DNA of 64,000 nucleotides from contig CAZBKB010000005.1 of the NCBI GenBank assembly GCA_964492425.1, positions 12,468-76,467 on the forward strand, given 5' to 3'. Positions within the stretch are counted from its first letter, which is position 1. Each line of letters starts with the position of its first letter. The stretch is from an uncultured Gammaproteobacteria bacterium (lineage in GTDB: Bacteria; Patescibacteriota; Microgenomatia; Curtissbacterales; GWA2-41-24). Below are positions 35,872 to 44,705 of this stretch, one piece after another. A program made the translations under genes and the position numbers. The notes under the pieces were generated by a model. The model had not been told where the DNA came from. It was given only the letters and a program-made list of their open reading frames with translations, and searched no databases.

Positions 35872-37473
35872 GTGGCAACAATCCAAAATTTTGATTTAGA
35901 CGATAAACCATATGACCATTGCGGGATTGCGGCAGCTTTAGTCAAAGAGGGTATCAACGCTTCAAACATAGTTGTAGAAATGGGCAAAGCTCTCCAGCAC
36001 AGAGGCCAAAACGGTGGAGGACTTGGAGTAAAAGCGCAGGGCAAACTTCTCAAAATATATAAAAAAACACAAGCTTTCAACGAAATATTCCGCTCTGTAG
36101 AAGTCATTGAAGAGAATTCCTTAAGGGGTGAGCTTGCACTAGCTCACCTGAGATATCCAACCGAAGGTGCAAGTCGCGAAAATTGTGACGCCCAGCCATT
36201 TTTTGCTTCATATGGCGGTTGGGAAATTGCCCTTGGTCATAACGGGAGTATAGTTGATGTCAAACGGCACAAAAACAAACTCAAGAAATTCAATATAAAA
36301 ACCGATTCCGATTCTGACAGCGAAATCCTTGCATGGCTTATTGTGACAGCTCCCGGAATCACTTGGAAGCAAAAAGTTTCAACTGCCCTAGCCGACGTCA
36401 AAGGGGCTTATTCCCTGGCAATGATCACAAATGACGATAAGCTGTTGGCTCTTCGCGACCCATGGGGTATCAGACCTCTTGTCTGGACCCAAGACAACGG
36501 ACATGTCTTTGTAGCATCAGAAACTTGTGCCCTCGATAGAATAAGTATCAGAAATAGTCAAAAACTTGATGCAGGAAAACTCTTGATTGCAGACAAGGAT
36601 GGCGTGACAATTACAGATTATACTTTGGCGCAAAAACAAAGCTTTTGCGTATTTGAAAAACTTTACTTCTCAAATGAAACCTCAACCTGGGACGGTGTAA
36701 TTGGTGAAAATAGAGAAGCTTTAGGGCAGGAACTTGCCAGACAAGAAATAAGATTGCTTGAAAAAGGAGAAATTAAAAAGGAAGTATTTAATAAGATAGA
36801 TTATATTGTTGCAGTTCCGGATACTGCGCGACCAGGGGCATTTGCCTTCTATGAAACATTAAAGCACGAATTGCCTGCAATGCCAAAATTTAGGTACTTC
36901 AGAGGTCTTGTTAAAGAAAGATACGATTACGCAAAAAGAACATTTATAGAGGATGATCCATTTCTTAGAAAGCGTCACATAGAAAAAAAGTTTTTCGTTT
37001 CCCCAACCATAATAGGCAAATCTATTTATCTTATAGATGATACTGCAGTAAGACTTAATACATATAAAATCTTAGTCGAGCATTTACTTAAAATCGGGGT
37101 TATGGAGATTCATTGTAGATTCCTAGCACCAAAGTTTGTAAATCCATGTTTTTTAGGAGTTAATATAGGTTCTCGAGATGAATTAGGGGCTGTTAAAAAA
37201 GACAAAAATGGCAAATATACAATATTTAGTGATGAAGCAATAAGAAAGATGCTAAACGTTGCATCAGTCAAATATCTTTCTATACAAGGTTTAGCCAAAT
37301 CTCTAGGTTTAACACAGGAAGAAATGCAAGAAAGTCATTGTACAGGTTGCCTTAACTACCATAACCCTTTCGACATGAGACAGTTTGATAAGGAATATAA
37401 AAATACGCCATACGCTGTGAAAGGACCAGCAGAAACTAAGCTCCAAATTTACTCACAGGTTCAAGCAATTTAG
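35872..37473 (+). CDS. purF: Amidophosphoribosyltransferase PurF ([4Fe-4S] type with N-terminal propeptide)
   Basis: Collinear with B. subtilis PurF. Nucleophile Cys in YDHCGIAA, followed by LQHRGQNGGG, LALAHLRY, ALGHNGSIVD, TDSDSEILAWLI, RPLVWTQDNGHVFVASETCALD, the PRTase loop IYLIDDTAVRLNT, and the cluster cysteines PCFLG and CTGCLNYHNP. Confidence 0.8.
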   Translation: MATIQNFDLDDKPYDHCGIAAALVKEGINASNIVVEMGKALQHRGQNGGGLGVKAQGKLLKIYKKTQAFNEIFRSVEVIEENSLRGELALAHLRYPTEGASRENCDAQPFFASYGGWEIALGHNGSIVDVKRHKNKLKKFNIKTDSDSDSEILAWLIVTAPGITWKQKVSTALADVKGAYSLAMITNDDKLLALRDPWGIRPLVWTQDNGHVFVASETCALDRISIRNSQKLDAGKLLIADKDGVTITDYTLAQKQSFCVFEKLYFSNETSTWDGVIGENREALGQELARQEIRLLEKGEIKKEVFNKIDYIVAVPDTARPGAFAFYETLKHELPAMPKFRYFRGLVKERYDYAKRTFIEDDPFLRKRHIEKKFFVSPTIIGKSIYLIDDTAVRLNTYKILVEHLLKIGVMEIHCRFLAPKFVNPCFLGVNIGSRDELGAVKKDKNGKYTIFSDEAIRKMLNVASVKYLSIQGLAKSLGLTQEEMQESHCTGCLNYHNPFDMRQFDKEYKNTPYAVKGPAETKLQIYSQVQAI

Positions 37474-37533
37474 TACTCAGATTTTTAAAGTTCTAATAGT
37501 AGCTTAAAACACCCATTGACAATCGAATAAAAA

Positions 37534-37569
37534 TGGTGAAAAATGGTTATAGATGGTGAATATTGGTGA
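37534..37569 (+). promoter_or_regulatory. Candidate MraZ operator: four direct TGGT(G/T)A repeats with exact 10-bp phasing upstream of mraZ
   Basis: tggtga 37534-37539, tggtta 37544-37549, tggtga 37554-37559 and tggtga 37564-37569. A ttgaca hexamer lies at 37516-37521. mraZ starts at 37663. Confidence 0.55.
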
Positions 37570-37662
37570 TTCTGAATAATATAGAACACCAATTAAGCCC
37601 CGATAGCTTAGCTGCCCGGGTGTTTTACTAGCCTCTTCGAGAAAAGGTTGTAAGGGATTCCA

Positions 37663-38064
37663 ATGTTTTTGGGCAGCTATGTACCTTCGTTTGATTTAAC
37701 TACGAGAAGGATTGCTTTGCCAAAAAAAATACGTGACTATCTTGCGACAAGTGAAATCATACTATCCTACGGCTTCGATAAATGCCTGTTTGGCTTTGAT
37801 ATTAAATCCTGGCAACAAGAGGCAAACAAACAGCTTAATTTACCGCTTACCGACAAACGCTCACGCAATATTCGCCGATTCTTCTTTTCTTCAGCAATCC
37901 GTATCATGCTTGATGATCAAGGCCGTTTTGTCATACCTCTTGCTTTATTGGAGTATGCGCAAATAAAAGAACCAGTAATTACTGGTTCTGGAGATCATTT
38001 TGAAATTTGGGATCAACAGATTTGGAAAGAACAACTGAAAAAGATAACAGCGCAAGAGACATGA
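37663..38064 (+). CDS. mraZ: Transcriptional regulator MraZ
   Basis: First gene of the dcw cluster. Duplicated MraZ/SpoVT-AbrB-like halves with LDDQGRFVIPLALLEYA (DxxxR-type motif). 133 aa. Confidence 0.8.
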   Translation: MFLGSYVPSFDLTTRRIALPKKIRDYLATSEIILSYGFDKCLFGFDIKSWQQEANKQLNLPLTDKRSRNIRRFFFSSAIRIMLDDQGRFVIPLALLEYAQIKEPVITGSGDHFEIWDQQIWKEQLKKITAQET

Positions 38065-38924
38065 TTCGGTTTCATACAAGCGTACTTCTAAATGAGGCGA
38101 TAGGTTTTTTGAAGCCAGAAAGCGGTAAGAGTTTTATAGATGCGACAGCTGGAGGCGGGGGTCACACACAAGACCTGCTAAAAAGAGGAGCAAGAGTTTT
38201 AGCGCTGGATAGGGATCCAGAGGCAATTGAATACTTAAAGCAAAAAAAAGAGGAAAATTTAACAGTCGAAAAAGGAAATTTTTCGCACATTTATACAATT
38301 GCACAAGAAAACGGGTTTAAAGAAGTAGACGGCATTCTTTTTGATCTTGGTGTTTCCTCTTATCAACTAGAATCAGCGCAGAGGGGATTTAGCTTTCAAA
38401 AAGATGGGCCACTAGACATGCGCATGGAGCCTGAACTTGAAGTGCAAGCTAGTAATATTGTTAATCATTTTGAGAAAAGGAGGTTGAATGAAATCTTTAA
38501 AGTATTTGGTCAAGAAAAGCTTAGTTTGGCAATTGCTGAGGCTATTTGCAGCACCCGTCAAATAAAGCTGCTTGAAACTACAAAAGATTTAGAAAAAGTA
38601 GTTTATGAGGTGTATAGGAAAAAAAACGTAAAGACAAAGTTGCATCCTGCAACAAAAGTTTTTCAGGCACTACGGATAGTAGTAAATAGCGAACTTTTAA
38701 ATTTAGAAGAAGCCTTGCCGCAGACGACACGGTTACTAAAAAAAAGTGGCCGGTTGGTAATTGTAAGTTTTCATTCTCTTGAAGATGCAATAGTCAAACG
38801 ATTCTTCAAGGACTGTAAAGAATTAAAAACGCTTACAAAACTACCTATCGGCCCAAGTATCTTAGAAATACAAAGAAATCCAAGGTCAAGAAGCGCAAAA
38901 CTTAGGGCAGCAGAAAAACTCTAA
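38061..38924 (+). CDS. rsmH: 16S rRNA (cytosine1402-N4)-methyltransferase RsmH (MraW)
   Basis: MIRFHTSVLLNEAIGFL..FIDATAGGGGHT. The start was chosen at ATG 38061 (ATGA overlap with the mraZ stop). The long ORF from 38007 probably over-extends. Confidence 0.85.
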   Translation: MIRFHTSVLLNEAIGFLKPESGKSFIDATAGGGGHTQDLLKRGARVLALDRDPEAIEYLKQKKEENLTVEKGNFSHIYTIAQENGFKEVDGILFDLGVSSYQLESAQRGFSFQKDGPLDMRMEPELEVQASNIVNHFEKRRLNEIFKVFGQEKLSLAIAEAICSTRQIKLLETTKDLEKVVYEVYRKKNVKTKLHPATKVFQALRIVVNSELLNLEEALPQTTRLLKKSGRLVIVSFHSLEDAIVKRFFKDCKELKTLTKLPIGPSILEIQRNPRSRSAKLRAAEKL

Positions 38925-41512: not shown

Positions 41513-42721
41513 ATGTGGCAAAAGATAAAAAACGTTTACCATCTTACCCAAGCTCTGGCTGCCTCCGCCTACTTTGGGTTTCCCTCACGTCATTTAACAG
41601 TCCTTGCAGTGACTGGCACAGATGGCAAAACCACAACCATCAGTATGATTTATCACATCCTCAATTCGTCAGGTAAAAAAACCTCGATGGTTTCTTCACT
41701 TGGTGCACAGATTGCAGATGAATCAATTGACACGGGTTATCACGTTACTACACCCAATCCCTGGCAGCTGCAGAAACTTTTAAAAAAAGCACATATCAAA
41801 GGTTCAGAATATTTCATACTCGAAGCGACCTCTCATGGTTTAGACCAAAATAGATTAGCATTTATTAACATTCACATAGCAATCATTACAAATATCACAA
41901 GCGAGCACATTGATTATCATAAAAGTTGGTTAAATTATGCAAAATCTAAGTCAAAAATATTTAAAAATGTCAAGTATTCAATTTTAAATATTGATGACAG
42001 CAAATCATACAATTTTTTAAAAGACAAGACTTTTGGTAAAGTGATCACTTACTCACAAAATAGAGATGCGGATTATGACCTTAAAAAATATCCTATAAAA
42101 TTACAGGTTTTAGGTGAATACAATTTATCAAATGCACTTGCGGCGTGTGCGGCAACAAATACCCTGGGAATTCCCAAGCGAGATATCATAAGCTCTCTTA
42201 CTAAATTTTCGAGTGTAAAAGGAAGACTTGAAAAAATCGACATTGGACAAGCATTTGATACTATTGTTGATTTCGCACATACACCACACGCATTAGAGAC
42301 AGTATTAGCTGCTTTAAAAAAGACCAATCCGAAATCAAGAATTATTGCAGTCTTTGGGGCAGCTGGTGAAAGGGATGCATCTAAAAGGCCACTCATGGGT
42401 GAGATAGCAGCCAAATATGCAAATATCGTTGTTGTTACCGCAGAGGATCCAAGAAACGAAAATCCTAAGGATATCGCAGAAGATATCGCATCAGGTCTTA
42501 AAAAACATGGCAAAAAAGAGGATAAGGATTTTTTTATTGTGCTTGATCGCAGGAGTGCAATACAATTTGCAGTAAATAAAGCAAAAAAAGGTGATGTATT
42601 AGGCTTTTTTGGCAAAGGCCATGAAAAAAGCTTGTGCATCGGGAAAAAGGAGTGTCCATGGAATGAAATTCAAGAAGTAGAGAATGCAGTTAGAAAGCAA
42701 ATAAAAAATGGCAAAAACTGA
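41513..42721 (+). CDS. murE: UDP-N-acetylmuramoyl-tripeptide ligase MurE (short form lacking the N-terminal domain)
   Basis: Mur ligase P-loop VTGTDGKTTT near the N-terminus. EATSHGLDQNRL matches the MurE ME.SSH.L.Q.R block. C-terminal Mur ligase domain present. Confidence 0.6.
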   Translation: MWQKIKNVYHLTQALAASAYFGFPSRHLTVLAVTGTDGKTTTISMIYHILNSSGKKTSMVSSLGAQIADESIDTGYHVTTPNPWQLQKLLKKAHIKGSEYFILEATSHGLDQNRLAFINIHIAIITNITSEHIDYHKSWLNYAKSKSKIFKNVKYSILNIDDSKSYNFLKDKTFGKVITYSQNRDADYDLKKYPIKLQVLGEYNLSNALAACAATNTLGIPKRDIISSLTKFSSVKGRLEKIDIGQAFDTIVDFAHTPHALETVLAALKKTNPKSRIIAVFGAAGERDASKRPLMGEIAAKYANIVVVTAEDPRNENPKDIAEDIASGLKKHGKKEDKDFFIVLDRRSAIQFAVNKAKKGDVLGFFGKGHEKSLCIGKKECPWNEIQEVENAVRKQIKNGKN

Positions 42722-44705
42722 TTTTTCAGCGATCATTTTGGCAGCGGGAGTAGGTAAAAGGATGAACAGTGAAAAATCCAAAGTCCTTCATAAAATTGGC
42801 ACCAAGCCTATGATCCAAAAAACTGTAGAGACGTTAGAAAATTTAGCCCCACATCAGATTATTGTTGTTGCAAATAGGGCAAATAAAGACGAGCTCAAAA
42901 GCGTTATTCCAAATACTACCATAGTTATCCAAGATAAGCCTTTGGGAACTGCAGACGCCACAGCTATTGGATTACAACAGGTCAGTCCTCCTAGCATACG
43001 AGACATTGCTGTGCTTTATGGGGACGATACAGCTTTCTATAGCCCCGAAACTATCAAACATGTGTTCAACTTCCATCAAAAATCCAAAGCTAAAATCACG
43101 TTTGTCACCATCAAAAGAGAAAATCCCGAGAGGTTGGGAAGAATCATAAGAAGTGGCGAAAAACTTTTAGGAATAATTGAGGACAAAGATGCAACTGAAG
43201 AGCAAAAGAAAATTAGAGAGGTAAACGATGGTTTGTATTTCTTTGATAAAAGTTATTTAAAGGCAAATATCCACAAACTTAAGCCATCCAGAACCACTGG
43301 TGAGCTTTATATTACCGACCTTATCGCGCTCGCGTTAGAAAACCATCAAAAAGTTGAAACGTATAAACTCGATAATGAAGCTGAATGGCATGGCATTAAT
43401 ACGCAAGTTGAACTTGCGAAAGCAAACTTTAAAATCAACAAGTCAATACATATTATGGGTATTTCTGGAGCTGGAGCTTCAGCTATTGCTGGGATTTCAA
43501 AAGCCGAAGGCTATAAGGTATCTGGGTGCGATATCAATCCTAATTCTTCATACATCGACAAGTCAGAGATAAAAATTGTCAAAGGTCACAACAAAGCTCA
43601 TCTGGATTCTATCTCTTGCCTGGTTATCTCCCCCGCTGTTGTGAAATTCAATCCAAAAAACGAGGAGGTTATCAGCGCAAAAGATAAAGGCTTATCAGTT
43701 CTAACTTGGCAGGAATTCCAAGGATCCATACTTATGGAAAATAAATTAACAATTGCAGTTGCAGGAGCATACGGAAAATCAACAACAACTGCTATGATCG
43801 GCAAACTACTTTCAGACACCGGACTCGATCCAACAATAGAAATCGGCGCAAAAATGCTCAATTGGGGTAAAAATTTCAGAGTTGGTAAATCAAAATATTA
43901 CGTCTGTGAAGCAGATGAATATAACGATAATTTTTTAAATTATAGACCCGGCATTGCTGTAGTTCTGAACGTCGATTGGGACCACCCGGACTATTTCAAG
44001 AGTCGTCAACAAGCCGAAAAATCTTTCATGTCATTTATAAACAATATTAAAGACGACGGGTATCTGATAACGACACAAGAAATTATTGAAAAGATATGTA
44101 AAAATATCAGAAAAGATATAATAATTACAAAAATATCTAAATTTTCAAATATCAATCTAAAGATTATTGGAGATTTTAGAATAGAAAATGCAAATGCCGC
44201 ACTCACACTTGCCCAAATTCTCAAAATTGATCTTGAAAAAGCCCGAAAGTCAATAAATAACTTTAGTGGATTAGGGAGAAGGCTTGAGTTTAAAGGCGAA
44301 CTAGGAGGTGTAAAGTTTTATGATGATTATGCAGTTCAGCCTTATACTGTACAGAAAACTGCAAATGCTCTAAGACAAAAATATAAAAAAAGAAAAATTA
44401 CCCTAGTGCTAGAGCCTCACACATTCACAAGAGTAAATATGTTCTTCAATGATTTTGTGCAGAAATTAAAGAATACAAATGTTGACCAGATCCTCATCAC
44501 CGACGTTTACGCAGCCAGAGAAAAGGGTAATAAAAGTAGTCTATCGAGAAAATTAGCCAACGTTATAGGCAAAAAAGCATGGTACATTGGCTCTGTCAAG
44601 GATATTGCAGATAACATAAGAAATAATATGGACCTTTTTGATGTCGTTTTAACAATGGGTGCAGGTGAGGTTTACAAAGTATATGATTTAGTTAAAAATG
44701 GATAA
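42708..44705 (+). CDS. murC: Fusion protein: GlmU-type UDP-GlcNAc pyrophosphorylase domain (N) plus UDP-N-acetylmuramate--L-alanine ligase MurC (C)
   Basis: Residues 1-240 are collinear with the E. coli GlmU uridyltransferase domain (AIILAAGVGKRMNS..KVLH, GIIEDKDATEEQKKIREVNDGLY, ELYITDLIALA), with no LbH acetyltransferase domain. Residues about 245-665 are MurC (IMGISGAGASAIAG, GAYGKSTTTAMIG, CEADEYNDNF). Confidence 0.75.
   Translation: MAKTDFSAIILAAGVGKRMNSEKSKVLHKIGTKPMIQKTVETLENLAPHQIIVVANRANKDELKSVIPNTTIVIQDKPLGTADATAIGLQQVSPPSIRDIAVLYGDDTAFYSPETIKHVFNFHQKSKAKITFVTIKRENPERLGRIIRSGEKLLGIIEDKDATEEQKKIREVNDGLYFFDKSYLKANIHKLKPSRTTGELYITDLIALALENHQKVETYKLDNEAEWHGINTQVELAKANFKINKSIHIMGISGAGASAIAGISKAEGYKVSGCDINPNSSYIDKSEIKIVKGHNKAHLDSISCLVISPAVVKFNPKNEEVISAKDKGLSVLTWQEFQGSILMENKLTIAVAGAYGKSTTTAMIGKLLSDTGLDPTIEIGAKMLNWGKNFRVGKSKYYVCEADEYNDNFLNYRPGIAVVLNVDWDHPDYFKSRQQAEKSFMSFINNIKDDGYLITTQEIIEKICKNIRKDIIITKISKFSNINLKIIGDFRIENANAALTLAQILKIDLEKARKSINNFSGLGRRLEFKGELGGVKFYDDYAVQPYTVQKTANALRQKYKKRKITLVLEPHTFTRVNMFFNDFVQKLKNTNVDQILITDVYAAREKGNKSSLSRKLANVIGKKAWYIGSVKDIADNIRNNMDLFDVVLTMGAGEVYKVYDLVKNG

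Follow-up and report, generated by a model that had tools for sequence, protein, structure and literature searches.

Four direct repeats of the form (A)TGGT(G/T)A, set upstream of mraZ, very probably constitute an MraZ operator within the core promoter of the dcw cluster in the 64,000-nt stretch of DNA analyzed here (hereafter the window; G+C = 37%). The array is exactly phased, unique, conserved and linked to mraZ, and its geometry and core match those of operators proven in other bacteria. The site lies upstream of mraZ at the dcw promoter and is built of at least three (here four) direct repeats with a 10-bp period; the array is conserved while its flanks diverge, and the cognate MraZ carries two DXXXR motifs, the first in a variant loop. 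Multi-box copies of the array number one in the 64-kb window and none elsewhere in the flanks of related loci.

A phased four-box array in the dcw promoter

An earlier note on this DNA had placed TGGT(G/T)A repeats at 37534, 37544, 37554 and 37564, next to a TTGACA hexamer and about 95–130 nt upstream of the mraZ start. Read directly, the sequence around the boxes (cacccaTTGACAatcgaataaaaaTGGTGAaaaaTGGTTAtagaTGGTGAatatTGGTGAttct) has the repeats at exactly these four positions, in exact 10-bp steps; the TTGACA hexamer is present at 37516–21, and the array occupies the interval 94–129 nt before the mraZ ATG at 37663. The elements of the promoter, with the number of related array-linked regions (out of 71) that retain each base of the TGG core, are as follows.

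37516..37521, + strand: −35 hexamer TTGACA of the dcw (mraZ) promoter; TTGAC[AC] lies 12–13 nt 5′ of box 1 in 71/71 array-linked regions
37534..37539, + strand: putative MraZ box 1, TGGTGA, preceded by A at 37533; T68 G71 G69 of 71
37539..37544, + strand: predicted −10 element AAAAAT, 17 nt past TTGACA; promoter scan 10/12
37544..37549, + strand: putative MraZ box 2, TGGTTA; T71 G71 G71 of 71
37551..37552, + strand: predicted transcription start, in the TAGA spacer before box 3, 7–8 nt past the −10 and placed from the −10 position only
37554..37559, + strand: putative MraZ box 3, TGGTGA, about +3 to +8; T69 G70 G70 of 71
37564..37569, + strand: putative MraZ box 4, TGGTGA, about +13 to +18, doubling as the 5′ arm of helix P1 in the leader; G67 G69 T67 of 71

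Box 1 begins 12 nt past TTGACA in the window and forms the 3′ end of the −35/−10 spacer (the last 5 of its 17 nt), while the predicted −10 shares its first base with the end of box 1 and its final T with the beginning of box 2. A scan of 37300–37800 for terminators found none.

A single TGGTKA hexamer occurs at background level in the window (74 matches versus 66 ± 8 expected). The four-box phased pattern, by comparison, has one site in the 64 kb and no match in 100 dinucleotide-preserving shuffles, and three-box phased patterns are likewise confined to the mraZ promoter site within the window and absent from the shuffles.

mraZ, its product and the dcw cluster

The genes at the head of the cluster are listed below.

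37663..38064, + strand: mraZ, 133 aa, presumed reader of the boxes; Pfam PF02381 at 8.6e-23, in two stretches
38061..38924, + strand: rsmH/mraW; Pfam Methyltransf_5 at 1.1e-95

The rsmH ATG overlaps the mraZ stop codon as ATGA (38061–38064), an arrangement that suggests translational coupling of the two genes. Downstream of rsmH follow an ftsL-like ORF, ftsI, several mur ligases, murB, murA, alr, mraY, murD and ftsA, and the series that runs from mraZ and rsmH through ftsL-like/ftsI, mur and mraY to ftsA thus marks the head of a full dcw cluster. Within it, a 665-aa ORF (42708–44705) joins an N-terminal nucleotidyl-transferase domain (PF00483) to a complete Mur ligase with catalytic, middle and C-terminal domains, an unusual fusion.

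The window MraZ has 443 homologs, and those that carry names belong to Candidatus Curtissbacteria (Microgenomates, CPR/Patescibacteria); the MraZ chains 1n0e and 9qlr in the PDB match it at 1e-15 to 1e-16. The Asp/Arg pairs of both DNA-binding loops are kept, D11 with R15/R16 and D84 with R88. In a HMMER alignment to M. genitalium MraZ, the second DXXXR motif is intact (D84-x3-R88), and the first, D11-LTT-R15-R16, has one inserted residue that brings R16 opposite Arg15, with Thr14 opposite Lys13 (window F-D11-L-T-T-R15-R16-I-A-L-P versus M. genitalium L-D-N-K-N-R-I-S-L-P). In this MraZ subfamily the first loop (residues 9–20, FDLTTRRIALP, within 37663–37722 of the window) is one residue longer than that of E. 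coli or Mycoplasma and has an extra Arg. Because of the Thr at the Lys13 equivalent and the longer first loop, the details of DNA recognition may differ from those of the characterized proteins.

Conservation of the array among related loci

The earlier note had proposed that dcw promoter regions of related genomes be compared for conservation of the repeats. An MraZ alignment supplied 80 loci from species-representative genomes, and 79 upstream regions, consisting of the window and related Microgenomates loci, were scored with each region anchored on its −35. TTGACA-N12/13-(A)TGG(T)(G)(A) ×4 at exact 10-bp phase is present in 71/79 regions, and most of the others are truncated where their contigs end. 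In L016, a Curtiss-like locus, the 330 nt preceding mraZ hold no array. Nearly all loci read cTTGACA-N12/13-TGGTGAAAAATGGT(A/T)ATAGATGGTGAnnnnTGGTGA upstream of mraZ, or a lineage variant of it.

Position by position, the box consensus is A-T-G-G-T-G-A, with the TGG triplet retained in 67–71 of the 71 regions for every box. The base preceding TGG is A in 56–70 of the 71 for boxes 1–3 and mixed in box 4, and is G in only 0–15. The sequence 5′ of the −35 and the spacer between the −35 and box 1 show no conservation. The same division is seen in the closest relative (L202; MraZ 86% identical), in which the whole array is identical and both of these segments have diverged. In L021, a second, partial copy of the array (tagaTGGTGAtaaaTGGTGA) lies in the leader, about 60–100 nt past the main array, and represents a local duplication of boxes 3 and 4.

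Searched on both strands, the 254 kb of the 80 loci contain four-box phased TGG arrays at 65 loci, all of them at most 330 nt upstream of mraZ; three-box arrays in the same sequence number 92 inside the 330 nt upstream of mraZ and 0 outside. The gene upstream is a class-II glutamine amidotransferase (GATase) gene in the window and a different one in 51/72 loci, with the array kept next to mraZ; since only 21/72 loci have the window's upstream gene, the array travels with mraZ. A metagenome scan by DNA pattern alone returned at least seven Curtiss-type arrays among the matches listed, and in 6/6 testable cases mraZ follows. The relaxed four-box metagenome matches listed (L082–L161) are mostly perfect 10-bp minisatellites such as TGGTGATTAA; these tandem repeats, which give up to 17 or more overlapping matches and are concentrated in metagenome Ga0126342, are unrelated to mraZ.

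That four hexamers fell into this arrangement by chance would accord with the background frequency of lone TGGTKA hexamers in the window, but is refuted by the array as a whole, which appears in 0/100 shuffles, is conserved in 71 regions and occurs only upstream of mraZ in 254 kb; we give this explanation practically no weight.

A further explanation is that the conserved segment is simply a core promoter with its initial transcribed sequence (−10, discriminator, start and A-rich bending), in which the TGG periodicity is incidental and no dedicated regulator is involved. The −10 and the predicted start do lie inside the array, and the box spacers AAAA and TAGA are conserved too, so part of the conservation reflects the promoter rather than the operator. 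The hexamer homologous to the −10, which ends at the T of box 2, reads nAnnAT in all lineages (AAAAAT, GAAAAT, AACTAT, AATAAT, AATTAT) and retains the two most important −10 positions. Against a promoter-only origin, however, the four TGG triplets are the most invariant feature, including that of box 4, which at about +13 lies outside the expected range of promoter elements, and there is no further phased array in the 64-kb window or in the 254 kb of loci, which surely hold many promoters. We consider it improbable that the promoter accounts for the array by itself, and retain the MraZ operator as our reading.

Box sequence and MraZ loop type

Across the 71 array-linked regions, the sequence of the boxes differs between groups of loci in step with the first DNA-binding loop of MraZ. 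A long loop of the type xx[ST][RK]R is paired with ATGGTGA boxes (29 loci), and boxes 1, 3 and 4 each have T at position 4 in 29/29 of these. Where the loop is D[DE]RGR (12 loci), boxes 1 and 3 carry ATGGG (11/12 each), box 2 is ATGGATA and box 4 is TGGTA, while a [TS]GxGR loop (16 loci) accompanies ATGG(C/T)GG, ATGGTTA, ATGGTGA and A(A/T)GGTGA. Such co-variation is what regulator–operator co-evolution would be expected to look like and is suggestive of it; it does not amount to proof, because each loop type is also a clade and the pairing is confounded with phylogeny. These clade-specific pairings nonetheless offer natural variants for testing the recognition rules derived from the 2026 cryo-EM structure of MraZ on its operator.

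Direct repeats about one helical turn apart are used by other regulator families as well, and the array might accordingly serve another regulator of this kind, for example an OmpR/PhoB- or WalR-type response regulator of cell-wall genes, with MraZ a mere neighbor. This general property of helical-turn repeats speaks for such a regulator. The array, however, always lies directly upstream of mraZ, whatever the gene on its other side, its 4+6 geometry and TGG core agree with proven MraZ boxes, and the flavor of the boxes tracks the MraZ loop type. Taken together, these observations make a different regulator improbable and favor MraZ as the protein that reads the array.

The mraZ leader RNA

The predicted start leaves a leader of 112 nt, which folds at −44.1 kcal/mol, better than 200/200 shuffles (z = −2.9). 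No Rfam family was assigned to it: a search of 37400–37800 at E ≤ 10 gave best scores of 12–18 bits, none of them close to a gathering score, from chance-level eukaryotic snoRNA/lncRNA models. Three leader elements, P1, P2 and P3, recur in Curtiss-like loci; the strands of P1 and P3 in the window are given here.

37587..37593, + strand: P1 3′ arm CACCAAT, pairing with ATTGGTG at 37562–68; in the MFE structure, and the helix is predicted by RNAalifold
37609..37617, + strand: P3 5′ strand, leader motif UAGCUGCCC, complementary to mraZ codons 3–6 at 9/9 positions
37671..37679, + strand: P3 3′ strand GGGCAGCUA, in mraZ codons 3–6; from complementarity, RNAalifold consensus and MFE

The P1 helix is identical in the closest relative, and in other relatives box 4 or box 3 pairs with CACCA(A/T)(T/C), for example CACCATC, located 3–24 nt downstream of box 4. 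This pairing raises the question of whether boxes 3 and 4 are kept mainly as RNA, forming the 5′-terminal stem P1 of a leader that controls mRNA stability or translation, with the DNA repeat secondary. In line with this, boxes 3 and 4 have their complement in a CACCA(T/A)(C/T) element that lies past box 4, at a distance that differs between loci, and the leader as a whole folds better than every shuffle. On the other hand, boxes 1 and 2, upstream of the predicted start, are conserved as strongly, and Gottesmanbacteria-type loci, with 34-nt leaders and no CACCA element, keep four phased boxes. We therefore regard a primarily RNA-based origin as quite unlikely; if these two boxes act in the RNA as well, they more likely do so on top of the DNA operator than in its place. 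Some RNA-level constraint may act on these boxes, as both are probably transcribed and box 4 pairs with the downstream CACCA.

In relatives, P2 is an ACUCC(UG)/(CG)GGAGU hairpin with a variable loop. Under a covariance model, 75.7% of cells are paired versus 36–55% in slid controls, the covariation score is 0.20 versus ≤0.10 in controls, and 6/9 pairs show changes on both sides; these values come from an alignment fitted to that same model, with a few weak matches among its members. The window's own P2 is degenerate (arms 37595–602 / 37617–24, with two internal mismatches); its arms were misaligned by MAFFT, and its 3′ arm (37617–27) can alternatively pair with 37582–90. We had taken ACACC/GGUGU for a compensatory change of ACUCC/GGAGU, an interpretation we have withdrawn since the closest relative shows ACACC to be in the P1 3′ arm (CACCAAT).

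P3 is a candidate long-range helix. In the window it would have 9 perfect pairs, or 12 with G-U, and in most loci the potential duplex is 10–16 nt, formed between the loop motif (A)GCUGCCC, usually extended by GGGAG, and mraZ codons 2–6. GCUGCCC is conserved in nearly all Curtiss-like leaders. On the coding side, codons 3–5 are CTG (or TTG), GGC and AGC in 26–28/28 loci, all of them rare choices that account for 10%, 24% and 10% of their synonymous sets in the genes of the window, and the nearby codons for Ser9, Phe10 and Asp11 vary freely among loci. Daviesbacteria-type loci, in which residue 5 is Glu, have the complementarity shifted to UGCCCAGAAA with UUUUUGGGCG. Single-sequence shuffle tests of P3 were only moderately significant, and no double-compensatory change was found among the compared loci, as the coding side hardly varies.

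A genuine P3 would shut the ribosome-binding site and start codon inside a long-range helix, adding translational control of MraZ and setting its level of translation. Since P3 and hairpin P2 compete over the GGGAGU segment, P3 might function as a switch. We put forward, as a tentative and on balance doubtful proposal, that mraZ in Curtissbacteria (and, in shifted form, in Daviesbacteria) is under stacked control by an MraZ operator and a previously undescribed structured leader in which the GCUGCCC loop and codons 2–6 form a pseudoknot-like helix. A speculative thought is that the leader UGCCCG mimics 16S rRNA around C1402, the RsmH target; the idea rests on 5 nt.

Other sequence features were noted in the leaders. 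Several loci (L003, L010, L011, L012, L013, L015, L019, L024 and L029) have CCCTCC-(loop)-GGAGGG hairpins about 20–40 nt before the mraZ start, in 2–3 copies in some, in which an SD-like GGAGGG would pair with an anti-SD-like CCCTCC; the window is without them. The long leaders (140–245 nt) of L011, L012, L013, L015, L020, L024, L108, L118 and L122 hold an extra conserved module, (a)agtcctttcaagtt, which sits in the P2 loop region upstream of GCTGCCC. In the window, TAAAACACCCATT (37505–37517, reaching and overlapping the −35) recurs as TAGAACACCAATT after box 4 (37582–37594), a repeat that may represent an inverted GGTG box or chance, and TAAAACACCC (37505–14) is perfectly complementary to GGGTGTTTTA at 37618–27. 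CACCnATTGACA is common to the window and its closest relative, L202, and absent from other loci.

Proposed mode of control and significance

By the arrangement of the promoter, four neighboring MraZ subunits within one oligomer would insert their SpoVT/AbrB-type cradles, one apiece, into successive major grooves, and the bound protein would cover a single helix face between about −17 and +18, interleaved with the −10. As the predicted −10 falls between boxes 1 and 2 and the predicted start just before box 3, bound MraZ should occlude the promoter; RNA polymerase would be blocked, resulting in negative autoregulation of mraZ together with the downstream division and cell-wall genes. We infer the −10, the start site, MraZ binding and repression as the direction of control from this layout, and hold autorepression with less confidence than the identity of the operator. 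The sign of regulation is uncertain given that an activating role has been reported for the MraZ of M. gallisepticum.

These findings would extend the MraZ autoregulatory operator to the Patescibacteria (CPR), a vast radiation of uncultured bacteria in which hardly any transcription-factor sites have been characterized; among the top matches of a literature search, no paper mentioned both MraZ and these lineages. Promoters in these genomes could be annotated with the help of a promoter/operator model that combines TTGACA-N17-nAnnAT and four phased ATGGTGA boxes. The understanding of MraZ itself is unchanged: the array adds an example from an unstudied phylum to an established type of switch, from which it departs in minor, lineage-specific ways, and it is the leader RNA that most deserves further study.

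Comparison with known MraZ operators

In E. coli, the MraZ boxes of Pmra reportedly consist of three TGGGN repeats, a description attributed to Eraso et al. 2014. Read directly, the E. coli K-12 promoter has TTGACA, a 17-nt spacer ending in ...cc and then GTAAACtcctttcaGTGGGAaattGTGGGGcaaaGTGGGA, with GTGGGAaattGTGGGGcaaaGTGGGA downstream of TTGACA; its MraZ is annotated as a repressor. The perfect TTGACA −35 and the 10-bp box period are shared with the window. With GTAAAC taken as its −10, E. coli would have its first TGG 10 nt past the end of that element, which is also the distance of box 3 from the predicted −10 in the window. The boxes differ in sequence (TGGG in E. coli, TGGT here) and in number, in that E. 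coli has three, all past the −10, and the window has two extra boxes upstream of and across it.

Published MraZ operators are described as GTG(G/T) boxes with 6-nt spacers, usually three in number (PMC12957436). An exception is M. genitalium, whose four boxes (AAAGTGT-N3 ×3 + AAAGTGG) are engaged by four MraZ subunits in the cryo-EM structure of Sanchez-Alba 2026, with Lys13, Arg15 and Arg86 contacting the TG(T/G) triplet and the transcription start located inside box 1 (PMC12957436). For M. genitalium and M. gallisepticum, PMC8475190 cites Fisunov 2016 for an operator of AAAGTG(T/G)-N3 ×4. The window array resembles these operators in its four direct boxes, 10-bp period, A-rich 5′ flank, TG(G/T) triplet and location at the mraZ promoter and start. 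Unlike the Mycoplasma boxes, those described here have A or T rather than G before TGG and a conserved TGA after the core; the M. genitalium boxes are all at or past +1, whereas boxes 1 and 2 here would flank the −10, and the window MraZ, with its longer first loop, is without an equivalent of Lys13.

Repression in B. subtilis depends on three boxes of the form GTGG[A/T]G, spaced 4 nt apart, and the array has a single occurrence in the sequence searched, at the mraZ promoter (White et al. preprint, bioRxiv 10.1101/2022.02.09.479790). The 6+4 layout and the core TGG(T)G are common to both arrays, and GTGGTG versus ATGGTGA is the closest sequence match among the known boxes. B. subtilis differs in having three boxes rather than four and G rather than A before TGG; its operator function is experimentally proven, and that of the window array is proposed.

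Together, these comparisons bear on two further claims of the earlier note. It had stated that MraZ binds short direct repeats spaced 10 bp apart, and the period, box length and TGG core found here do agree with experimentally proven operators. It had also called the array a lineage-specific MraZ-box variant, which is a fair description in that A replaces G before TGG; the variation is mild and leaves the contacted core TG(T/G) intact. Set against the canonical cores GTG(G/T), TGGGN and GTGG[A/T]G, the boxes agree in TGG and not in the first base. The local differences are modest: A for G before TGG, boxes that appear interleaved with the −10, and a longer first loop lacking the Lys13 equivalent. 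Overall, the AAAATGGTGA units of the window combine the period and TGG core of known operators with an A-rich 5′ flank as in Mycoplasma and a B. subtilis-like extension.
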